A DNA stretch of 64,000 bases from an uncultured bacterium (GTDB lineage: Bacteria; Babelota; Babeliae; Babelales; Babelaceae), in NCBI GenBank assembly GCA_963722385.1, contig CAVRKK010000002.1, positions 1,120,001 to 1,184,000 on the forward strand. The letters are read 5' to 3'. Below the pieces are notes generated by a model. The model did no database searches. It had not been told where the DNA came from and was given only the letters and a program-made list of their open reading frames with translations. This document shows, in pieces, positions 35,340-55,455 of this stretch. Made by a program: the position numbers and the translations under genes. Each line of letters begins with the position of its first letter. Position 1 is the stretch's first letter.

Positions 35340-36381
35340 GCAACAACCTATCTGCCTCGTAGCTGGCTTGTCGGGAGGACATCTCTTGCCGGTCTTTGCT
35401 TTAGCAACAGCGATGCGTAAGGATGGCACTGTACCAGTTATTCTTTTTTCTGCAACGACCGCTCTTGACCATACCATTGTCAAGCATATTGGTGGTATTG
35501 ATACGCACTATACGCTTGGCATTAATCGGTTGTGTGCTCGGCGTTGGTATACCTACCCTTTCGCTTTATTAGCGCTAGCCAAGGACTTTGCGCAAAGCTG
35601 GTGGCGACTTCGAAAGGTACATGCTCAATGTATCATCACGACGGGCGGGCTTATTGCTGTTCCCGTTTGCTTGGCGGGGTGGCTTTTGGGTATCCCGATA
35701 ACCGTTTACGAGCTCAACGCCCTGCCGGGGCGTGCCGTATCATTTCTTGCTGGCTTCGCGATGCGCCTTTGTATATGTTTTGAAAGCGCTCGCATGCACT
35801 TCAGCTCGGCAAACCAAGAAAAGATTGTCCACGTGGATTACCCGATTAGATTTAGTACTGCCGACAAGCTTACCAGCCTGCAAGCACGAACACAGCTTGG
35901 TTTAGCGCCTACGGCTAAAATTTTGCTTATTGTGGGTGGCTCGCAAGGCTCCCAATTTCTTAATGCTGTCGCTCAAGCGTATCTTCGCTATCGCATGCTT
36001 ATGCTCGCCGAGAGTGACCAGAAGCTTATTGTTTTTCATCAAGCCGGCCAGGCGCAGCAAGAAGAAGTTGAGCAGTTTTACAAAAATTATGGTATTGCGG
36101 CCACCGTATTTTCGTATAAGGCCGATATAGCGGTCTATTATGCTGCTGCTGATGTGGTCATAGCCCGAGCTGGTGCAGGCACCGTGTTCGAGCTCGCATT
36201 TTTTGACAAGAAATCGATTATTATCCCGCTTGAAGGCGCCGCGGCGGGGCATCAAGTACATAATGCTCTTGCAATTGCCGCGCAGTACCCGCATTTATTT
36301 ACCGTCTATCGCCAAGAAAGTATCGAGAAAAGTCCAAGTGAGCTCTATAGCTATCTCGATAGCCTGCTATCGCCGGCGTGA
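35329..36381 (+). CDS. murG: Undecaprenyl-PP-MurNAc-pentapeptide GlcNAc transferase
   Basis: SGGHLLP, TGG....P, E.NA.PG, GGSQGS, RAGA.T..E, HQ..NA. Confidence 0.92.
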   Translation: MDNKQQPICLVAGLSGGHLLPVFALATAMRKDGTVPVILFSATTALDHTIVKHIGGIDTHYTLGINRLCARRWYTYPFALLALAKDFAQSWWRLRKVHAQCIITTGGLIAVPVCLAGWLLGIPITVYELNALPGRAVSFLAGFAMRLCICFESARMHFSSANQEKIVHVDYPIRFSTADKLTSLQARTQLGLAPTAKILLIVGGSQGSQFLNAVAQAYLRYRMLMLAESDQKLIVFHQAGQAQQEEVEQFYKNYGIAATVFSYKADIAVYYAAADVVIARAGAGTVFELAFFDKKSIIIPLEGAAAGHQVHNALAIAAQYPHLFTVYRQESIEKSPSELYSYLDSLLSPA

Positions 36382-36384
36382 GCG

Positions 36385-36780
36385 GCCTTCGCGGCCAGCG
36401 CGCCTGTGCGGCGAGCACACTTACGCAGTGGGCGGCAGAAGCCAGCTTCTGCACTTGTTACCTTTATCATCGTTGCTTCAGATGTTTATTTTTGATTTAG
36501 GTAAATGCCGATAACCATGCGGGGCGCATGATTATGACTACCGCAATTTTCCTGACGGAAAATAGACAAGCGATATTAAATTTTATCATGGAGCGCAGCG
36601 ACATGATAATGGCGTAAGTTATCGTACGCTTTGGCGTATGATAACTACACAGACCAAGCTTATAAGCACAACGCTACGGGATCCCAAAGGACATAGCGAT
36701 GCGGAGTAGCGCAACGCTTGTCCGTAGCGGCTTTTTGTAAAGAAAGCGATCAGCGGAGGCGGGCGCTAGCCGCGCCCGCC
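36385..36780. repeat. Structured non-coding repeat, copy 2 (inverted relative to copy 1)
   Basis: Core 36505-36690 is the near-identical reverse complement of about 33850-34033; closing stem 36390-36401/36763-36774. Confidence 0.85.
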
Positions 36781-36989
36781 TTGTAGGCACTTAAGGTTCC
36801 GCGGAGCAAGCGATTCAGCTTTCTAGCGTTATTTCGGGTTACAGGATTGGCCAGCGCAGAAAATTACATAGTAATTGCCGCTGCCCATACGTCCTGGAAC
36901 TTTTCCGCCTTGCCAATTAAGTGGCCAATAGCGGTTGACTTAATCATGACGCTGCCAGCCGGTAATTCAAATTCTTCAAGGCAATTAGA

Positions 36990-37331
36990 TTACAGTTTGA
37001 GGCCGCAGGACCTGCCATTGCAAAAGGTTACTTGGTTCCTTGTTCCAGGAATGTCGTAGCTACCAATAGCATTGCTAAAGATTGTCCAAAGAGGACCTAT
37101 ACCACGTTTACCCGTTTGCATGCCTATATGTGTGCTAACAACGTCAAAAGTATTTCTGTCACAGTCAACAACTGGTCCAAATTCAGTTAGCTTGTATGAG
37201 CAGGTTTTGTCAGAAAGCTCCAGCTCTTTGCTTGCCTGGGACGTGTCAATAGGAAGCTTAGTTAATTGCGCCGAACAACCGAGGAATGATCCCAAGGCAA
37301 CTACCAATAAACTTAAGGTTAAATATTTCAT
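36990..37331 (-). CDS. Small secreted protein or lipoprotein, paralog of 37367-37708
   Basis: Signal with FLGC; shared P.DT..E..D..C.Y..G..V.C..F.V.S. Confidence 0.6.
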   Translation of the reverse strand: MKYLTLSLLVVALGSFLGCSAQLTKLPIDTSQASKELELSDKTCSYKLTEFGPVVDCDRNTFDVVSTHIGMQTGKRGIGPLWTIFSNAIGSYDIPGTRNQVTFCNGRSCGLKL

Positions 37332-37366
37332 ATACGTCTCTTTGATTATAATTAAAGGTTTTTTAC

Positions 37367-37708
37367 TTATTGAGCCATGACAAGGGTTAGTGTATTCACT
37401 ATTGTGCCATCAGGGGCTACTGTTGATGATGGAAATTTGCCTACGTAATTTGGGCTTCCTTTCAATGTCGATGCTCTGGTAGGGACAACAGTTTTTGAAG
37501 TAACGTTAAAAAAGGGTCTGTGATACTCACACGTTACCGAGCTGCTTGCTGTTGTTCCTAAAATACTTACGTTATAAGTACACGAATCATTGGCTTCTAT
37601 ACCCACTCTGTTATTTCTTGTGTCAAGTGGTGTGCTAAAATTAGCACCTAAACTTATTTGCCCTGATACTAGTAGAGCTAATACAACGAAATTTCTAACT
37701 TTTACCAT
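37367..37708 (-). CDS. Small secreted protein, paralog of 36990-37331
   Basis: AGGAG RBS, signal peptide MVKVRNFVVLALLVSGQISLG. Confidence 0.6.
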   Translation of the reverse strand: MVKVRNFVVLALLVSGQISLGANFSTPLDTRNNRVGIEANDSCTYNVSILGTTASSSVTCEYHRPFFNVTSKTVVPTRASTLKGSPNYVGKFPSSTVAPDGTIVNTLTLVMAQ

Positions 37709-37860
37709 ATTCTTTCTCCTTTTCTTATTTAAGTTCACTCTAGCAGGATTTATTTTAAATTGTCAATATTTAAGTAAAAAGCGCTCAATAATTCTACGAT
37801 AGAAATATTAACGATATCGTCAGCTCGTTAAATACTTTACGAGATAGGTGATCAAGGCAT

Positions 37861-39753
37861 TTAACTCGGCCAATTTTTAGGTGTGCCAGCCAAATACACA
37901 TTGGAGCCTGGCTGCATCAAAAGAGGAGGCGTTGATAAGCTGATGGGGCCGAGCAAAATTAAATAAAGAGCTTGAAGTCCTGCTTGACTAAAAATTCTTT
38001 GGGAAGGCGCGGCATTAGGGTTATTGAAAAGCGTTGGTGCGCCTTTTGCACGGAGATAGGCAGACAGGTCGGGCACCAGGCTCTCAAGCTTTGTGGCAAA
38101 GGGTGCTAGGTTGTCCAAGGTGATAGCCTGAAGAGGAATCGTTTTTTTGTTTGCAGAAAATGTAGCCAGCCAGCCGACAATATTCTGCTGAAATTCAGCC
38201 GTTGCTTGCGCACTTTTTTCTTGCTTGGTCCCTTTAAATGCATCGGGTGCTAAGTGCGCCGTTACGATGCTGGCAAATGTGGCATCCGCCTTGAGTATTG
38301 CTGGTGAAATTTGGTAAAAGCGTGGTGTTAGCTGCCCGCCACCATAGGCCAGAAAGGTGTCGGTTAAGAGCAGCGTACCAGTTATGCCTGATATAGGCTC
38401 AGTAATAATAGCATTGGTGGGCGCTTGCATTGCCTTGTGAACAGCAATCGCTATATCCTCGGTGCTCATCGTTGCCGGGTTTTTAATCGACGTTTTTACG
38501 ATTGTCTGTACCAGATTGGGGTTTTTTATAACGTTCGAAAGAAATGTACGAGCTTTTGCTTGATTGTCCGTGCCTACTAAAAACAAATACAGCTGGGCAG
38601 CTTTCTGGCTTGCCGGTGGCCGTAAGATCGCAAACGAACTTACTGCACCTGATGGTAGCTCCTGTTGAAGCAGGTAATCTTTGACCGCATAAGCAGCCCA
38701 GAGCTGTCCCGGTAACGCGAGTGGTATCAGAGAAGGGTCTGGCTTGCCATTTTTGCTGAGCTCCTCAAGGTACTGCTGTGGCGAGGTATTCCAGACCTTG
38801 CATATCACCGGGTTAATGTCACGGACTTTGGCAAGTTGCGCAGGAGCCTCAGATGCAGCAACGTCGCGGACACCTATTTGGTTATGATTGCCCATGTTAA
38901 AACCTTGGATGCCAATAGCGAGACTGTCCCTATCCTTGCCTACAATTTCGTAGGTATAGGTCAACGGGACGAGAGATTCTTTTTTGGTCGTACGGTCATG
39001 GTAAATTTGACCGAGGCCTTTTGAGCTAATCGGTATCTTCACCGTGTTATTTGGCAAAATAAAGCTAAAAATGCTGTTGGGGCCGCGTATCGAGTTTGAC
39101 TGCATTGTGTCAGAGCTTAGTAAGCTAAAGGAATCTGCCTCAAGAATTGCTTTGAATGATTGGGTATTTTTGGTAAAGCCGAGAGAGATATCATATGCCG
39201 TGTTGTTAAAAAAAACGCCCTCAAAATCAGTCGATTGCGTATAGGGACCACCGTACCAGCCAGGGCCCATGAATTCACCTTCGTAGTTGCCATCGAGCAC
39301 ATAGCCATGATAGAAGTATTTATTTTTGTCGGTTTTTGATATATCAACCGGATGATTAAAAAATTGCTTGGTTGGTACCTGCCTACCCATAATGGATTGC
39401 GCACCAACAAGCTTAAGACGAATAATTGCATGGCAAACATTTAAGTTGGTAAAGGGGGCGTATTGATACGGCTGGATATTTTGCGAGGTCGTGGTTTTAG
39501 AATTAAACTTCGCTCCCTGTACTTGTACAATGCTTTGAACATCAACGTTTATTTCCTGAGGAATATCATTCCAAACTTCCATATTGTAATCGTAATCTGA
39601 AGGACAGTAGCCGAAGCTCACGGCAAATTGCTCTGGCAGTCCCTTCATGCTTGACAAGGCACTATTTATATCAGAAGAGACCTCATTTGCAAACAGAGGT
39701 GGCCAAAGAGCCAGCAAAGATGCTAGAAGCGCAAGGATCCAGGGAGCTCGCAT
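37861..39753 (-). CDS. Secreted hypothetical protein
   Basis: 630-aa ORF with signal peptide; no recognised domain. Confidence 0.7.
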   Translation of the reverse strand: MRAPWILALLASLLALWPPLFANEVSSDINSALSSMKGLPEQFAVSFGYCPSDYDYNMEVWNDIPQEINVDVQSIVQVQGAKFNSKTTTSQNIQPYQYAPFTNLNVCHAIIRLKLVGAQSIMGRQVPTKQFFNHPVDISKTDKNKYFYHGYVLDGNYEGEFMGPGWYGGPYTQSTDFEGVFFNNTAYDISLGFTKNTQSFKAILEADSFSLLSSDTMQSNSIRGPNSIFSFILPNNTVKIPISSKGLGQIYHDRTTKKESLVPLTYTYEIVGKDRDSLAIGIQGFNMGNHNQIGVRDVAASEAPAQLAKVRDINPVICKVWNTSPQQYLEELSKNGKPDPSLIPLALPGQLWAAYAVKDYLLQQELPSGAVSSFAILRPPASQKAAQLYLFLVGTDNQAKARTFLSNVIKNPNLVQTIVKTSIKNPATMSTEDIAIAVHKAMQAPTNAIITEPISGITGTLLLTDTFLAYGGGQLTPRFYQISPAILKADATFASIVTAHLAPDAFKGTKQEKSAQATAEFQQNIVGWLATFSANKKTIPLQAITLDNLAPFATKLESLVPDLSAYLRAKGAPTLFNNPNAAPSQRIFSQAGLQALYLILLGPISLSTPPLLMQPGSNVYLAGTPKNWPS

Positions 39754-39966
39754 ATCTTTTTCCTTACCCGTAAAGCTTTTGCTTACTCTAGAAAATTAGG
39801 GTTGCTCGATGCAATAGTAGGGCTCTTTAGCTAACTTCCTCAAATATTATGGCACAGTTCATAAGGTGCTTTATTAACATAGAGATGCAAAAATACTAAA
39901 ATAATTCCTAACTTTATAGTAGAATACCAAAGTAGCAAAGTTACTTGCATTTTAAGGGATAGAATA

Positions 39967-40212
39967 GTCAACTAACCAGCGGCCTAAAGGCCGCGGCTTG
40001 TAGAAGCCCGGGTTGACCAGCTTCAGCCGGCGTAGCTCTTGAGCGAAGACGGCTACGTTATAAGGGAGGGCTTAAGATCGCACCTTGGGATGCGTGCCAG
40101 TTCCAAGTTCTGTAACTAAAGGGTTAAACAGACCGAGGGTTTAAGTCAGTGCTTTTTAGATACGCCGCCTTATAACATGAGCGAGGCAAACTTTACCCCC
40201 TTATGGGGAGAT
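39967..40212 (+). ncRNA. omegaRNA/HEARO scaffold (5' guide predicted at about 39947-39966)
   Basis: Conserved blocks GTCAAC..GTTGACCAG, CTACGTT, ACCTTGGGATGCGTGCCAGTTCCAAG, GGTTAAACAG, CAGTGC, AACAT..GCGAGGCAAACTTTACC directly upstream of iscB. Confidence 0.9.
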
Positions 40213-40225
40213 TTTTAGGAGTGTC

Positions 40226-41509
40226 ATGTCCTTAGTGTTTGTCATAGACAAGAATAAGCAACCCTGTAACCCCTGCCATCCGGCGGCAGCAAGAACCCTG
40301 CTCAAACAAGGCAAAGCTGCTGTTTTCAGGCACTTTCCTTTCGTTATCATTCTTAAATACGAACGCATACTTGAAGTTCGCTTATTGAGGCTTAAATTAG
40401 ATCTTGGCTCTAAGGTTACAGGACTTGTTGTCCTTGATGAGAGCACTGGCAAAGTAGCCTTTGCGGCAGAGATTGAGCACCGAGGAAACACCATTCGCGA
40501 CCAACTTCTTACCAGAAGAAGTCTTCGTAGAAATAGAAGGAATAGAAAGACGCGATATCGCCAACCTCGATTTGATAATAGAACTCGGCCTTCCGGCTGG
40601 CTTGCCCCTTCATTGCAGAGTAGGATAGATAATACCATAACATGGGTCCATAAGCTTATACGTTATTGTCCTATCGGCGCTATTAGCCAGGAATTGGTAC
40701 GTTTCGATACGCAGCTTATGCAAAATGCCCACATTACGGGTGTCGAATATCAACAAGGAACCCTGGCTGGCTATGAAGTTCGCGAGTATCTGCTCGAAAA
40801 GTTTCACCGATCTTGCGTCTATTGTAAAAAGTCTGGGATCCCTCTTGAAATAGAGCATATAATACCAAAGAGCAGAGGAGGAGGCAACCGTATTTCAAAT
40901 CTCACTCTTGCGTGTACTTCATGCAATCAGGCAAAAGACAATAAGACTGCGCAAGAATTTGGTCATCCTGAAGTACATGAGTTAGGCAAGACGTCACTCA
41001 GAGACGCAGCAGTGATGAACAGCGTTCGCTGGCATCTTTACCATGCATTATGCTCTCTCGGTTTACCCGTAGAAACAGGTACCGGTGGAAGAACTAAATA
41101 TAATAGAAATCTGCAAAACTTACCCAAGGCTCATTGGCTCGATGCCGCTTGTGTTGGTGCATCTACACCATCGCAGCTCATGGTTAATCATGTTAATCCG
41201 CTCCTGATAAAAGCAATAGGTCATGGTAGCCGACAAATGTGTAGAGTAGATAAGTATGGTTTTCCTCGTACCAGCTCAAAGTCTGCCAAAAAATGTTTTG
41301 GATTTCAAACAGGCGATATTGTTTGGGCTCGCGTACCACAAGGTAAAAAGAAGGGGAAATACCTCGGAAAGGTTGCTATCAGAACAAGCGGTTCTTTTAA
41401 TATCGCTACCTCTTCCAAAATAGTTCAGGGAATTAGTTACCGCTTCTGTAAAACAATTTCAGCTGTTAATGGTTATAGTTTTAATCAGGGCATTTTCTCT
41501 GCGCTCTAA
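40226..41509 (+). CDS. iscB: RNA-guided endonuclease IscB
   Basis: PLMP-like PCNPCHPA, RuvC-I LKLDLGSK, Arg-rich bridge helix RRSLRRNRR, RuvC-II QELVRFD, HNH CVYC..EHIIPKSRGG..NL..AC..CN, RuvC-III HWLDAA. Confidence 0.95.
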   Translation: MSLVFVIDKNKQPCNPCHPAAARTLLKQGKAAVFRHFPFVIILKYERILEVRLLRLKLDLGSKVTGLVVLDESTGKVAFAAEIEHRGNTIRDQLLTRRSLRRNRRNRKTRYRQPRFDNRTRPSGWLAPSLQSRIDNTITWVHKLIRYCPIGAISQELVRFDTQLMQNAHITGVEYQQGTLAGYEVREYLLEKFHRSCVYCKKSGIPLEIEHIIPKSRGGGNRISNLTLACTSCNQAKDNKTAQEFGHPEVHELGKTSLRDAAVMNSVRWHLYHALCSLGLPVETGTGGRTKYNRNLQNLPKAHWLDAACVGASTPSQLMVNHVNPLLIKAIGHGSRQMCRVDKYGFPRTSSKSAKKCFGFQTGDIVWARVPQGKKKGKYLGKVAIRTSGSFNIATSSKIVQGISYRFCKTISAVNGYSFNQGIFSAL

Positions 41510-41548
41510 AGAGCCCAGTTTCCATGCCTTTTCGGAGGAACAGTTAGA

Positions 41549-44500
41549 ATGATTAAGTATATGAAACTGATAGCATTAATAGGCTGTTTTTTGATTATGC
41601 CTGCTTATGGAATGGAACGACCGAGAAGAAATAAGCTTTTTGAGTATTTAGAAAAGGGTGATGTAAAAAGTTTAAACACTTTTCTGAGCTATAAAAAATT
41701 GACAGATAGGCTTAATTTAAGCGTATCTGATAGTGCTGGCTGGCAACCAATCCACCATGCTATAAAGAGTGGCGATAGGGAAAAAATAAAGCTTCTTATC
41801 GAATATGGTGCAGATGTAAATGCGCAAATAAAAGATAGCCAGGGGGAGCGACCGTTGCACATAGCAGCTCGAGCTGGGAATGAAGAGATTATTCTCGATC
41901 TCGTAGCAGCAGGAGCTCAACCAGATTTGGCTGACAATAATGGAATATTGCCTATTTACTATGCTGGAAATATATTGCCTTTATTTGTTGATTCTCCAGG
42001 TAATTCAGTAAATATGCATTGTGCTATGGGGCATGAGTCATCAGAGGTAAATAGATTTATAAACTTGAGTAAGCACGTGAGCACTTTATCGATAAGTGAT
42101 CAGTTTCTATTGTTGAGTCCGGCAAAGAAGAATGAAAGACCAGAAAACGCTGATAAGCAGATAAAAAGAGAAACAGCAGCAGGCAAGCTTTCTAGTGAAG
42201 AATGCAATCAAAGGCTTCTTAATGCCCTTTTACGTGGTGACCTTGAAGAAGCGCAATTATTTTATGCGGAAGGAGCCAACGTAAATTTCCGAGATGCTGT
42301 TGGTAATCAGCCTGTACATCATATAGTAAATCAAGGTTTAATGCCGACTCTTGAATGGCTTCTTATGCATGGCGCAGACATAAATGCAAGAGACAGAGAT
42401 GGTAACAGACCGGTACGTATAGCGGCTCTTAGAGGGCATGTTCAAGTTGTACCATGGCTCATTAAGCAGGGAGCCAATCGTAATGATCAAGAAGATCAAA
42501 AGCAAAAGGTTGAGAAAGAAACAAGTCAGCATTTCTTTTCTGAGAATAATGTTTGTTCGTCATTGATCTCGGAAAATGAGGTAGAGAAGCAAAAAGAAAA
42601 GGAAAGAGAGGAATCTTCTAATCAGCCTACTCAGGAAGAACTTAATAATAGGTTATTGAGCGCGGCTCAAGCTGGCCGTTTATCTGAGGCAAAGAGTTTA
42701 GTTAATCAAGGTGCTCATGTTAATGCCCAAGATAATCGAGGCTGGCAGCCTCTACGCCTCGCTGCTCAATTTGGGCATTTAGAAGTAGTTAAATATCTTG
42801 TTGAACATGAAGCTTCCATCAATGCTCAAGATAATGATGGCAGACAACCTCTTCATTGGTCTGTTTTTAATGGGCATTTAGAAGTAGTAAAATGGCTTGT
42901 TGAGCATAACGCTGGTATCAATGCCCAAGATAATTCTGGCAAGCTTCCTCTCCATTACGCTGCCGGAAGAGGGCATTTAGAAGTAGTAAAATGGCTTGTT
43001 GAGCATGGTGCTGGTATCAATGCCCAAGATAATTCTGGCAGGCTTCCTCTCCATTCAGCTGCTCTCAATGGGCATTTAGAAGTGGTCAAATGTCTCGTGG
43101 AGCATGGTGCTCATGTTAATGCTGTAAATAGATTTAATCAAAGACCTATTGATGTAGCTGCTCAGAATAATAAGCAGAATATCGTTGATTGGCTTTCTAA
43201 AGTAGCTGAGAAAAAGGAGGCTAAAGAAAAAGAGCCTGAGAATGAAAGGGGGAATCATTCTCATCAGACTAGCCAGGAAGAACTTAACACGAGGTTATTG
43301 AGTGCTGCTCAAGCTGGCCGTTTGCCTGAGGTAGAACGTTTAATTAATCAAGGTGCTCATATTAATGCCCAAAGCCGTTTGGGCAGGCAGCCTCTCCATT
43401 CTGCTGTTTTTGGTGGGCATTTAGAAGTAGTCAAATGGCTTGTTGAACATGGCGCTTCCATCAATGCCCAAGATAAGCATGGATGGCGGCCTTTACATCT
43501 TGCTGCTCAAGAAGGGCATTTAGAAGTAGTAAAATGGCTAGTTGAACATGGTGCTACTATCAATACCCAAGGTAAGGACGGTAGGCAGCCTCTCCATTTT
43601 GCTGTTCTCCGCGGGCATTTAGAAGTAATCAAGTGGCTAGTTGATCATGGTGTTCCCATCGATGCGCAAGATAATGGTGGCTGGCAACCTCTTCATGTAG
43701 CTGCTAACCGCGGGCATTTAAAAGTAGTCAAATGGCTAGTTGATCAAAGCGCTGCCATCAATGCCCAAGATAAGCATGGATGGCAGCCTCTTCATGATGC
43801 TGCTTGTGGAGGGCATTTAGAAGTAGTAAAATGGCTAGTTAAACATGGTGCTACTATCAATACCCAAGGTAAGGACGGTAGGCAGCCTCTCAATTTTGCT
43901 GTTCTCCGCGGGCATTTAGAAGTAATCAAGTGGCTAGTTGATCATGGTGTTCCCATCGATGCGCAAGATAATGGTGGCTGGCAACCTCTCCATTCTGCTG
44001 CTTTTATAGGGCATTTAGAAGTAGTCAAATGGCTTGTTGAACGTGGCGCTTCCATCAATGCCCAAGATAAGCATGGATGGCAGCCTTTACATCTTGCTGC
44101 TCAAGAAGGGCATTTAGAAGTAGTTCAATGGCTTGTTGAACACGGTGCTTCCATCAATGCCCAAAATAATGGTGGCTGGCAACCTCTTCATGATGCTGCT
44201 TGTGGAGGGCATTTAGAAGTAGTCAAATGGTTGGTGGAGCATGGTGCTGATATTAATGCTGTAGATAGATTTGGTCTAAGACCTATTGATTTAGCTGCTG
44301 AGAGTAATAAGCAGAACATTGTTGATTGGCTTTCTAACGCTGCGAACAAAGGAGAGAGTAAAGAAAAATTGCCTGAGAAAGAAAAGGAGAGAGAAAGCTC
44401 TCCTACTCAGGAAGAGCTTAACAATAGGTTATTAAGTGCTGCTTACGCTGGCCGTTTATATGAAGTAGAGAGTTTAATTAATCAAGGAGCTAATACTAAT

Positions 44501-45655
44501 GCTCAAGATAATAATGGTATGCAGCCTCTCCATCGTGCTGTTTTTGGTGGACATTTAGAAGTAGTTAAATGGCTTGTTGAGCATGGTGCTTCCATCAATG
44601 TCCAAGGTATTTATGGCAGGCAGCTTCTCCATAGGGCTGCTTGGGGAGGGACTTTAGAAGTAGTCAAATGGTTAGTGGAGCATGGTGCTCCTATCAATAT
44701 CCAAGATAATAATGGTATGCAGCCTCTACATTGGGCTGCTTATGATGGGCATTTAGAAGTAGTTCAATGGCTTGTTGACCATGGTGCTTCCATCAATGCC
44801 CAAAATAAGACTGGCTGGCAACCTCTCCATTGGGCTGCTTATGATGGGCATTTAGAAGTAGTTAAATGGCTTGTTGAGCATGGTGCCGATATTAATGCTG
44901 TAGATAGATTTGGTCTAAGACCTATTGATGTAGCTGCTCAAAAGAATAAGCAGAATATTGTTGATTGGCTCTCTAAGGCTGCCGAGAAAGGAAAGAGCAA
45001 AGAAAAAGAGCCTGGGAAGCAAAAAGAGAAAGAAAAGAAAAATCATCCAAATCAGCCTACTCAAGAAGAGCTTAACAAGAGGTTACTCAATGCTGCTGCA
45101 GCTGGTCATTTATCTGAGATAGAGAGTTTAATTAATCAAGGGGCTCATGTTAATGCTCAAGGTAATGATGGCATGCAGCCTCTCCATTTGGCTGCTTTGG
45201 GAGGGCATTTAGAAGTAGTTAAATGGCTTGTTGAGCATGGTGCTTCCATCAATGTCCAAGGTATTTATGGCAGGCAGCTTCTCCATAGGGCTGCTTGGGG
45301 AGGGACTTTAGAAGTAGTCAAATGGTTAGTGGAGCATGGTGCTCCTATCAATATCCAAGATAATAATGGTATGCAGCCTCTACATTGGGCTGCTTATGAT
45401 GGGCATTTAGAAGTAGTTCAATGGCTTGTTGACCATGGTGCTTCCATCAATGCCCAAAATAAGACTGGCTGGCAACCTCTCCATTGGGCTGCTTATGATG
45501 GGCATTTAGAAGTAGTTAAATGGCTTGTTGAGCATGGTGCCGATATTAATGCTGTAGATAGATTTGGTCTAAGACCTATTGATGTAGTTGCTCAAAAGAA
45601 TAAGCAGAATATTGTTGATTGGCTCTCTAACATGATGGTTGAAAAGACCTCGTAA
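41549..45655 (+). CDS. Large secreted multi-cassette ankyrin-repeat protein
   Basis: Signal peptide; over 25 ankyrin repeats, 21 of them organised in four capped cassettes separated by KEKE linkers. Confidence 0.95.
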   Translation: MIKYMKLIALIGCFLIMPAYGMERPRRNKLFEYLEKGDVKSLNTFLSYKKLTDRLNLSVSDSAGWQPIHHAIKSGDREKIKLLIEYGADVNAQIKDSQGERPLHIAARAGNEEIILDLVAAGAQPDLADNNGILPIYYAGNILPLFVDSPGNSVNMHCAMGHESSEVNRFINLSKHVSTLSISDQFLLLSPAKKNERPENADKQIKRETAAGKLSSEECNQRLLNALLRGDLEEAQLFYAEGANVNFRDAVGNQPVHHIVNQGLMPTLEWLLMHGADINARDRDGNRPVRIAALRGHVQVVPWLIKQGANRNDQEDQKQKVEKETSQHFFSENNVCSSLISENEVEKQKEKEREESSNQPTQEELNNRLLSAAQAGRLSEAKSLVNQGAHVNAQDNRGWQPLRLAAQFGHLEVVKYLVEHEASINAQDNDGRQPLHWSVFNGHLEVVKWLVEHNAGINAQDNSGKLPLHYAAGRGHLEVVKWLVEHGAGINAQDNSGRLPLHSAALNGHLEVVKCLVEHGAHVNAVNRFNQRPIDVAAQNNKQNIVDWLSKVAEKKEAKEKEPENERGNHSHQTSQEELNTRLLSAAQAGRLPEVERLINQGAHINAQSRLGRQPLHSAVFGGHLEVVKWLVEHGASINAQDKHGWRPLHLAAQEGHLEVVKWLVEHGATINTQGKDGRQPLHFAVLRGHLEVIKWLVDHGVPIDAQDNGGWQPLHVAANRGHLKVVKWLVDQSAAINAQDKHGWQPLHDAACGGHLEVVKWLVKHGATINTQGKDGRQPLNFAVLRGHLEVIKWLVDHGVPIDAQDNGGWQPLHSAAFIGHLEVVKWLVERGASINAQDKHGWQPLHLAAQEGHLEVVQWLVEHGASINAQNNGGWQPLHDAACGGHLEVVKWLVEHGADINAVDRFGLRPIDLAAESNKQNIVDWLSNAANKGESKEKLPEKEKERESSPTQEELNNRLLSAAYAGRLYEVESLINQGANTNAQDNNGMQPLHRAVFGGHLEVVKWLVEHGASINVQGIYGRQLLHRAAWGGTLEVVKWLVEHGAPINIQDNNGMQPLHWAAYDGHLEVVQWLVDHGASINAQNKTGWQPLHWAAYDGHLEVVKWLVEHGADINAVDRFGLRPIDVAAQKNKQNIVDWLSKAAEKGKSKEKEPGKQKEKEKKNHPNQPTQEELNKRLLNAAAAGHLSEIESLINQGAHVNAQGNDGMQPLHLAALGGHLEVVKWLVEHGASINVQGIYGRQLLHRAAWGGTLEVVKWLVEHGAPINIQDNNGMQPLHWAAYDGHLEVVQWLVDHGASINAQNKTGWQPLHWAAYDGHLEVVKWLVEHGADINAVDRFGLRPIDVVAQKNKQNIVDWLSNMMVEKTS
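44552..45630 (+). repeat. 425-bp internal duplication (44552-44976 vs 45206-45630)
   Basis: Direct comparison; only one difference seen (GCT/GTT, AAQK vs VAQK). Confidence 0.85.
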
Positions 45656-45743
45656 ATTGGGGCATCCCCTAATGTAGCTTGTGCTTAACGAACGATTGTT
45701 TTAGCTCAAGAAAAGATTCCCCGAAATAAGTGTGAAATACCAT

Positions 45744-47546
45744 TTATTCCTGGGGGAATATGCCAATAATTTTATTGTAATCGAGCCAGAGCGGAAAGGC
45801 AGTGTTACTTGAATAAACATTTTTGCCCAGTGGCTGGTTATTGTCGCACCCAATATAAACTGCAGTGGTAAAAGAAGGTGTCGAGCCCGCAAACCAGCAG
45901 GTCCTCGCTTGATTGGTGGTTCCCGTTTTTCCAAAGAAGGGAACATCGGGCCAGCGCTGCGCATGCTTTTGCTTAAACCGGTCAAGGCTTGGAGAAAGGA
46001 TTTGAGTAATCTTGCTTGCCGTTTGCTCGCTTAAAATGGTCTTATGTACATCCTTATGCTTTGCTATTTTTTTACCCCAGGCATCTTTTACCCATTCAAT
46101 GAGGTAAGGCTGGTGATATATTCCTTTATGGGCAAACATGGTATACATCGCTACCGTGTTAAGTGGTGTGGTATCTATACACCCGAGTGCGAGGGAAGGA
46201 TAAGGCTCGATTGCCATCGCTAAATTGAGCTTTTTAGCATAATCAATAATTTTATCGATTCCTGCATGGAGAAGTACTTTAATGGCAATGGTGTTCTTTG
46301 ACGTAGCAAGCGCATGAGCTAACGTCATGGGCCCTTCAAATTTTTTATTGAAATTGTGAGGGTTCCAAACTTGATGGTGATCAGTAATCGTGACTGGCTC
46401 ATCAAGAGCGATGGTATCTAAATCAAGGCCACATTCTTGCAAAGCGATAGCATATATCAATGGCTTAAATACCGAGCCCATTTGTCGTTGTGCCTGGACA
46501 GCACGATTAAATTGTGACACCGTAAAATCGTAACCACCGACGAGCGCCTTAATAGCGCCATCTTTAACCGCAAGCGTGACAAGCGCGCCATCAGTGTCTG
46601 CCGGCAGCTTAGTGCGGAGCCCGCGTAGGTGCTTTTTAAAAGTATGTTCTGCTGCTTGTTGCATCGAAATATTTAAGGTCGTCTGGATAGTCAGGCCTCC
46701 TGTGTAGAGCTCCTTTCTACCCACCATGCTCTCCACAAGGGAGCGTATATATTCTCGGGCATGGCTTGCAAGCGGCTGTTCATCGACATGGAGCTTAACC
46801 GTGACTTGCTTTTGCAAAAGTTGCTGGTAATCATCGTCGGCGAGTAGTCCTGATGAGCGCATGAGCTTTAAGATGTGGTTGCGGCGAGTTTGCGTTTTGT
46901 GAGGGTTGATAAGTGGGCAATAGCGAGCGGGTGAGGCAATGATGGCTGCCAGTGTTGCTGACTCGTCAATGGTGAGGGTGCCAACGTCTTTGTTCCAAAA
47001 ACGTTGGCTGGCTGATTGAACACCGTAAATGCCACAACCAAAGTAGAGGTGGTTTAAGTAGGTTTCAAGAATGAGTTCTTTGGTAAATTGCCGCTCGACG
47101 GCTAATGACAAGAGCTGCTCTTTTATTTTGCGGTGGAATGTTTTGCGCTGATCGAAAAAGAGTAATCGTACGAGTTGCTGGGTAATAGTGCTAGCGCCCT
47201 GGACGCGGCCTTGACGCGCTAGATTTACCATAATGGAGCGTGCTATACCCTGCAAAGAGAGGCCACCGTGTGAGAAGAAATGACGGTCTTCGGCAAGGAG
47301 AAAAGCGTCGATAAGGTGCTTGGGCATGTCGCTTAATGAAACAGGCACGCGGCGGTCTATTTGAAACCGGCCCCATTCATTCCCCTGATCATCAAGAATG
47401 ATCGATGGCTTGCCTGGGTCATAGTGCTCCAAGACCGATAGGTCAACCCAGGGAACATGGGTGAGGTAAAAGAGCATACCAGAAGTGTACGTGCCTATCA
47501 GTGCTAAAAATATAAGCGCGTTTGTTACAAGTTTCATAATAACCAT
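45744..47546 (-). CDS. Class A penicillin-binding protein (PBP1A family)
   Basis: Transglycosylase AEDRHFF.H, GASTITQQL, RKIKE; transpeptidase SVFK, SKN, KTG. Confidence 0.93.
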   Translation of the reverse strand: MVIMKLVTNALIFLALIGTYTSGMLFYLTHVPWVDLSVLEHYDPGKPSIILDDQGNEWGRFQIDRRVPVSLSDMPKHLIDAFLLAEDRHFFSHGGLSLQGIARSIMVNLARQGRVQGASTITQQLVRLLFFDQRKTFHRKIKEQLLSLAVERQFTKELILETYLNHLYFGCGIYGVQSASQRFWNKDVGTLTIDESATLAAIIASPARYCPLINPHKTQTRRNHILKLMRSSGLLADDDYQQLLQKQVTVKLHVDEQPLASHAREYIRSLVESMVGRKELYTGGLTIQTTLNISMQQAAEHTFKKHLRGLRTKLPADTDGALVTLAVKDGAIKALVGGYDFTVSQFNRAVQAQRQMGSVFKPLIYAIALQECGLDLDTIALDEPVTITDHHQVWNPHNFNKKFEGPMTLAHALATSKNTIAIKVLLHAGIDKIIDYAKKLNLAMAIEPYPSLALGCIDTTPLNTVAMYTMFAHKGIYHQPYLIEWVKDAWGKKIAKHKDVHKTILSEQTASKITQILSPSLDRFKQKHAQRWPDVPFFGKTGTTNQARTCWFAGSTPSFTTAVYIGCDNNQPLGKNVYSSNTAFPLWLDYNKIIGIFPQE

Positions 47547-55196: not shown

Positions 55197-55455
55197 TTGG
55201 CTACTTCTCAAGATTGTAGTAAATGCCATCTACGAGGTAATCGCCAGGGTAAATTATTTAAGTGTCCTCATTGTAGGCACGTTGATCATGCTGACGTAAA
55301 TGCTTCATTCAACATAGCTATGCGTCATGGGCAGAGATCAATTGGACGCAGACAGAGTTGCGTTCAACGGGCTCACTGAAATCCCTAAAAGGGCTACGCT
55401 GCTTGAATGACCGCGACCCTAGAACCTCCGGCTTTTAAGCCGGCGTTATTCAGTC
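55197..55455 (+). pseudogene. 3' remnant of tnpB with IS200/IS605 right end
   Basis: [20 protein letters not shown]; subterminal hairpin CCGGCTT-TT-AAGCCGG. Confidence 0.8.

Follow-up and report, generated by a model that had tools for sequence, protein, structure and literature searches.

Results

An intact IscB/omega-RNA element lies in the window analysed here, a 64,000-nucleotide stretch of the genome of an uncultured bacterium of the Babelaceae (assembly GCA_963722385.1, contig CAVRKK010000002.1, positions 1,120,001 to 1,184,000), where it occupies positions 39967-41548 between a native Shine-Dalgarno (SD) motif and the ATG of a gene for a 1368-residue ankyrin-repeat protein (Table 1). 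The genome, designated G000, comprises 1.6 Mb in two contigs (C1 and C2). The omega-RNA scaffold (HEARO) is located directly 5' of iscB and begins at the element boundary, the GTCAAC at 39967 being the first position of the Rfam match. The iscB gene is preceded by an SD-like AGGAG of its own (40217-40221, plus strand) and encodes intact RuvC and HNH motifs at D59, E156, H211 and in the H303 region, whose roles we take to be those of IscB nucleases, proteins marked by a split RuvC, an HNH domain and an arginine-rich helix. Subterminal imperfect hairpins are present at both element ends, the left-end fold being modest (13 of 200 shuffles were equally good). The insertion stands beside a fixed tetranucleotide without target duplication, as seen from paralogue junctions and from same-genome copies, with the caveat of six extra nucleotides in the window copy. 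These features are those of a non-autonomous ISC2 or IscB-omegaRNA element (IS200/IS605), and by its sequence the element is an ordinary IscB/omega-RNA member of the IS200/IS605 superfamily, non-autonomous in kind. G000 carries two full-length tnpA genes, whose elements have similar hairpin loops and a different apparent target. When 36000-46000 was scanned for a group I intron or any other RNA family, only HEARO matched at E values up to 1; with no group I intron in this interval, an identity as IStron was rejected.

Table 1. Features in and around the IscB element (window coordinates)
Feature	Position	Strand	Basis and remarks
Sigma-70-like promoter candidate, divergent intergenic region	39874..39902	+	10 of 12 consensus match; weak
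Host leader holding the native SD, predicted omega-RNA guide source	39947..39966	+	5' of scaffold; guide origin inferred from bioRxiv 10.1101/2023.03.14.532601
Native SD-like AAGGGA	39954..39959	+	7 nt before junction; AAGGGAG at corresponding place in three paralogues
Transposon right end (on transposed strand)	39967..40000	-	Boundary common to C1 copy; hairpin 39979-39994; putative DNA guide 39997-40000
HEARO / omega-RNA scaffold	39967..40196	+	Rfam RF02033, 130.2 bits, gathering 83, model 1-211 of 211
iscB, 427 aa	40226..41509	+	NCBIfam NF040563 (guided_IscB), 428.9 bits, cut-off 175; RRXRR and HNH domains
Transposon left-end imperfect hairpin	41488..41529	-	Folds; z only -1.83 as DNA
Putative left-end DNA guide GAAA (minus strand)	41519-41522	-	Predicts target TCAT = ATGA; guide-target covariation
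Replacement SD-like GGAGGA in left-end linker	41534..41539	+	SD-like core present in three closest copies
6-nt extension	41543..41548	+	Confined to window copy; possibly flank sequence taken up, or a scar left by repair
ATGA: transposition target, predicted IscB target-adjacent motif, host-gene start codon	41549..41552	+	Insertion 5' of ATGA after any nucleotide in PMC4810608
Intact 1368-aa ankyrin-repeat gene, signal-peptide-like N-terminus	41549..45655	+	Member of paralogous family

The native AAGGGA is separated from the element by TAGAATA (39960-39966), and at the other end GGAGGA is followed by 9 nt and the ATGA at 41549. Four of the six element-free ankyrin paralogues shown from the same genome (C2:577901, 582549, 575332 and 452030) read GATAGAATA directly into ATGATTA, with AAGGGAG just 5' in three of these four; the remaining two (C2:617135 and 1009603) have different leaders. 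Because the element-free paralogues show the joined junction, we place the element between the native SD and the ATG, taking their junctions as a proxy for the empty site and not as the orthologous locus. Both the coordinates and the four paralogue junctions thereby bear out the initial annotation of this DNA, which had described such an insertion with these motifs and spacings. It had also called for the empty allele. No empty orthologous locus was found among 40 relatives, none of which shared the insertion, although the paralogues gave the predicted junction. The contigs of four read runs contained no joint skipping the element, their loose ends at 41548 being paralogue leaders, a negative that carries no evidential weight; a single contig of run X1 covers 41518-41689 and shows zero differences, though X1 may be the source of the window and is thus not independent.

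The gene upstream of the element is divergent, and the promoter candidate in the intergenic region is a possible source of a transcript covering omega-RNA, iscB and the ankyrin gene, with the promoter scan as a whole at chance level (3 sites found, 3.2 expected). The proposal that the host leader supplies the guide is supported, and this origin is established for IscB (bioRxiv 10.1101/2023.03.14.532601). The guide predicted from 39947-39966 matches the leaders of the four paralogues named above for 9 nt beside ATGA, which makes guide binding or weak cutting there possible on sequence grounds; full self-targeting of the paralogues was rejected, the best guide match being 11/16. A fifth 9-nt match in G000 belongs to a non-ankyrin gene. 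Membership of the downstream gene in a Dot/Icm-type ankyrin effector family was likewise rejected: all such NCBIfam models stayed below cut-off, and their matches arise from the repeats.

Across the family, HEARO matches numbered 26 and came from 9 of the 41 genomes, with copies at unrelated sites indicating mobility. The clade set took in 23 of the 24 HEARO places outside G000 and one truncated copy, from which five without a recognisable 3' end were dropped; with three places in G000, 22 ends were placed, 19 of them with both flanks, in 8 genomes. The IscB proteins of the clade are monophyletic in a quick tree (15 rows, SH-aLRT 97). ATGA was the target in all 22 placed ends, and same-genome copies diverge just after it, in agreement with the target named in the initial annotation; the ends were located using that motif. 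Insertion of ISC elements 5' of ATGA, after any nucleotide, has been published (PMC4810608), and target choice in IS608 depends on pairing with four guide bases of the left end (PMC3201880, PMC5934647). In the window element, we infer the GAAA guide, which sits in an internal loop of the larger hairpin, and the right-end guide by the IS608 pairing rule. That rule includes pairing of the fourth base. Its prediction agreed with the observed target for 58 of the 76 ends parsed (label shuffles: mean 31.6, maximum 48), a match that reflects covariation among related rows and is not a probability; the parser read 76 of 110 ends and left 34/110 unparsed. Two loci, L154 and L170, have an apparent ATGC target and an SD-like linker core; the guide fits by eye, and the parser agreed for one of the two. 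For the window IscB, our analysis predicts ATGA as the target-adjacent motif (TAM), which is expected to equal the transposition target. The original HEARO paper reportedly named ATGA/GTGA integration sites and the 2021 IscB paper is said to give an ATGA TAM; either may mention start codons.

The right flanks of the other copies, whose tabulation had been suggested together with the original proposal, are enriched at coding starts in the clade. We called a site start-like when its ATG opens at least 100 codons, has an in-frame stop at most 30 codons upstream and no earlier ATG. By this definition, 13 of the 19 clade insertions are start-like, versus 614 of 16153 ATGA sites in G000 (3.8%). The start excess shrinks as survivor filters are added. 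Among start-or-intergenic ATGA sites, 20% are start-like (binomial p 8e-6 for 13/19), and under the strictest null, which admits intergenic sites only if a same-strand gene is no more than 150 nt away, the share is 41% (p 0.013). The target genes include YhcG, secretin, resolvase, DUF58 and PrmC (5 of 8 scanned have a Pfam match), and two copies appear to lie within operons, the preceding co-oriented open reading frame (ORF) being 6 and 21 nt away and the next genes being the secretin and the DUF58 gene. A preference for effectors was rejected, given that the targets are unrelated genes and that hydrophobic N-termini are not enriched (11/17 vs 331/614). When the 19 left flanks are pooled, their SD content only slightly exceeds that of random ATGA sites (p 0.04) and falls short of that at typical starts (p 0.012). 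Upstream ORFs, called by crude length, are co-oriented in 12 and divergent in 7 of the 19, which is not informative. Six of the 19 fail the start test, one of which (L253) lies apparently inside a gene. L253, L254 and L255 are three copies in one genome (G050) with three linker lengths, none on a long ORF. L235, L237, L244 and L251 are internally deleted derivatives of 253-483 nt that have kept the omega-RNA and are still on start codons.

The linkers of the clade ends carry a common feature. An SD-like core, defined by an anti-SD energy of -3.3 or lower (a threshold set after the data were seen, which 27% of all ATGA sites pass), was found in 17/17 ends facing an ORF of at least 90 codons versus 2/5 others (Fisher p 0.006), and the three clade ends without it all face short ORFs. 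The summed anti-SD energy of the 19 distinct ends was better than in all 2000 composition shuffles. In most ends the core stops 7-10 nt short of the ATG, despite linkers that are otherwise very different; the sister group (5 rows) has no strong SD core.

The closest copies allow the window end to be compared with its relatives. A second, frameshifted copy on C1 (G000:C1:293193-291694, L002) is 94% identical, and two fragments are also present in the genome. The omega-RNA of L002 is interrupted by about 95 nt of inserted sequence, and this copy likewise sits on a start codon (388-codon ORF). The three closest copies, namely the C1 copy, a remnant at C2:585988-585899 and L248 in G052 (another genus, 85-90%), end in GGAGGAACA immediately followed by ATGA, and the window copy is six bases longer; the short end is therefore ancestral. 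The 6-nt extension stretches the gap from GGAG to ATG from 5 to 11 nt, where native-gene SD spacing peaks at 5-8 (103/139) and reaches 11 or more in 6/139; read by eye, a weaker register of the same motif has a gap of 8. The six nucleotides resemble leader positions -9 to -4 at 5/6 bases and may be a captured flank or a repair scar; none of the other 14 matches in G000 continues with ATGA as a prior donor site would. Flexible end spacing and flank capture have been described for IscB (bioRxiv 10.1101/2023.03.14.532601). The remainder of iscB has been lost at C2:585899 through a TnpB element and a deletion, and the native leader with it; a 1022-residue ankyrin paralogue there starts at its second Met with the element's end as its sole SD. 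The TnpB element there (G000:C2:585899-586700; L205, L024) adjoins a 100-nt right-hand remnant of iscB.

Outside the clade, 159 loci were reduced to 76 by dropping duplicates, 19 unclear ends and loci with no end or short flanks; right ends were located with a pattern and, in 47 loci of the whole set, by visual inspection, a choice that may favour start-like ends. Start-like sites made up 16/35 ATGA-target copies (background 103/2356, 4.4%) and 1/30 GTGA-target copies (background 35/1512, 2.3%). As ATGA copies dock at starts mostly without an SD (14/17 start-docked ends lack one), docking follows the ATGA target and needs no SD. As a trait, the linker SD belongs to this clade and to some cyanobacterial families. 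Six metagenome loci (L138, L140, L146, L156, L157 and L161) form an IscB family with a 5' end other than GTCA and a T-rich 3' end that runs into AGGAG- or GGGAG-like sequence, the start codon following after differing spacers; judging from these ends, the family may insert just 5' of the host SD and not at the ATG.

Discussion

We consider it reasonably probable that the locus reflects a fixed target tetranucleotide and survivor selection, together with an SD that is specific to the clade and maintained by selection, and not active targeting of gene starts. A Y1 transposase acting in trans would insert the element 5' of ATGA, guided by a four-base DNA guide in the left end that would pair with the target motif, a mechanism established elsewhere. 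ATGA is the commonest form of a gene start, and survivors would accumulate at start codons because intragenic copies are purged and IscB requires outside transcription for its guide; the pattern was observed here, and this is its presumed cause. Insertion would strand the native SD upstream, where it would become part of the guide, and an empty site would be cleaved and the element re-installed, by analogy with GstIscB of Geobacillus stearothermophilus. In this clade, the free linker between hairpin and cleavage site holds an SD-like core 3-10 nt before the ATG, presumably retained because copies that restore downstream translation cost the host less. Selection on the clade SD is our best reading of the association with long ORFs, and docking together with a spare SD probably lets the elements persist without switching the gene off. 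The ankyrin gene would then form the final cistron of a transcript running through omega-RNA, iscB and ank, which would be a side effect and not a designed coupling.

Several observations weigh against this explanation. An excess remains over the strictest null (p 0.013), and the nulls derive from crude ORF calls in G000 only. Since the clade ends share their ancestry, their SD may go back to a single chance event. The core may be structural, as adjacent pyrimidines can pair with it in a CTT-loop-purine mini-hairpin and several copies fold it shut; behind the left-end hairpin stands a short T run that might attenuate read-through, a feature not flagged in the scan. The 11-nt spacing in the window copy falls in the tail of the native range. 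Outside the clade, a strong linker SD occurs in 3/17 start-docked versus 6/25 other ATG-target ends (p 0.72), on which a general link between SD and start was rejected, and a strong core is seen in three GTGA copies from cyanobacteria (L084, L091, L115), none of them on a start. Alternatively, the purine core may be no ribosome-binding site (RBS) and may instead belong to the left end in a structural or neutral role, as a mini-hairpin or a once-captured leader inherited by the clade, with the downstream genes impaired or otherwise expressed. The frequent predicted pairing of the core, the missing SD-start link outside the clade, the linker lengths varying within the one genome G050, and the flexible spacing and flank capture described for IscB (bioRxiv 10.1101/2023.03.14.532601) all fit such a reading. 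We nevertheless regard it as rather unlikely, since the core persists across widely differing linkers, mostly 7-10 nt before the ATG, the three ends lacking it all face short ORFs, and the downstream genes, conserved ones included, are long and intact.

The excess over the strictest null (13/19 vs 41%) would instead be expected if integration were biased to gene 5' ends, via single-stranded DNA near promoters or via pairing between linker and leader. Linker and native leaders do look alike, and engineered extended end-target pairing redirects IS608, albeit on the other side of the hairpin (PMC5934647). Start-docking is, however, equally common in ATGA families without a linker SD (14/17), GTGA families avoid starts, and six of the 19 clade copies miss the start, L253 apparently inside a gene, all of which leaves an active preference improbable. 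The initial annotation had proposed that the element targets translation starts: the enrichment stands, while active targeting is not supported, as the tetranucleotide follows the DNA guide (58 of 76 parsed ends), GTGA copies are start-like in 1/30 and most of the excess is lost against survivor-type nulls. Its replacement SD likewise holds for the clade, where the core is found in 17/17 ends facing a long ORF, and fails as a general rule, with 14/17 start-docked ends outside lacking an SD. As for its suggestion that the insertion couples an effector to the nuclease, it seems to us very remote that the host has co-opted the insertion, whether to link the ankyrin gene with expression of the nuclease or to control that gene via the omega-RNA. 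Two ankyrin paralogues do carry the element or its end, and the predicted guide has a 9-nt match beside ATGA in four paralogue leaders. Yet no relative (0/40) shares the insertion, the other target genes are varied and unrelated, secreted-type proteins with hydrophobic N-termini are not enriched, effector models stay below cut-off, the best guide matches reach 11/16 and the fifth 9-nt match is not an ankyrin gene; the suggested coupling is thus unsupported.

Neither the element nor its target motif nor the logic of its guide is new. ISC1-1_MA, ISC2-1_HM and ISC2-1_MS (Kapitonov, Makarova, Koonin 2016; PMC4810608) resemble it in carrying iscB alone, a 5'-GTCA end, subterminal hairpins, no target duplication and insertion 5' of ATGA; they were described in a main text that, as far as accessible, does not mention the term start codon and tabulates neither gene starts nor an SD in the end. 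GstIscB has the TAM TTCAT, the reverse complement of ATGAA, and shares the guide from outside transcription and the flexible end spacing (bioRxiv 10.1101/2023.03.14.532601). ATGAA follows 18/22 clade ends, and ATGAT follows the window element. GstIscB elements show a bias to co-oriented upstream genes, whereas the gene upstream in the window is divergent, and neither downstream start codons nor RBS re-supply is discussed in the accessible part of that preprint (bioRxiv 10.1101/2023.03.14.532601). IS608 of Helicobacter pylori is alike in that base pairing with a four-base left-end guide sets the target (PMC3201880, PMC5934647), but it targets TTAC and encodes TnpA and TnpB, not IscB. IStrons (bioRxiv 10.1101/2023.11.20.567912) are also of IS605 type and are thought to soften the cost of insertion for the host gene; they do so by splicing out as group I introns, whereas the rescue proposed for the window element is an RBS. 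We found no published account of IscB start-codon docking or RBS re-supply, in a search that fell short of most subscription papers and supplements. What is new here is the clade count with graded nulls, the GTGA control and the clade-specific SD.

A broader proposition, which we find conceivable though doubtful, is that a translational safe-harbour strategy has arisen within one IscB clade. Start codons would serve as the target and the host leader as guide and promoter, and a selected left-end RBS would keep the gene translated even within an operon, as an RBS counterpart of IStron splicing, possibly with a real start bias, and leaving domesticated RBSs behind as at C2:585899. If true, it would explain why a TAM equal to the start codon is common and would predict rewired translation of host genes. 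IscB elements need outside transcription for their guide, and docking with an end-encoded RBS bears on how they persist at transcribed sites without harm to the host and on whether insertions are "preferentially generated versus preferentially retained", both left open in the accessible part of bioRxiv 10.1101/2023.03.14.532601.

Other mobile elements were noted in the same genome. An IS200 tnpA family and TnpB elements (G000:C2:344423, 544726 and 197451) have a common right-end hairpin, and a TnpB fragment of this group lies in the window at about 55200-55450 (C2:1175203-1175450).

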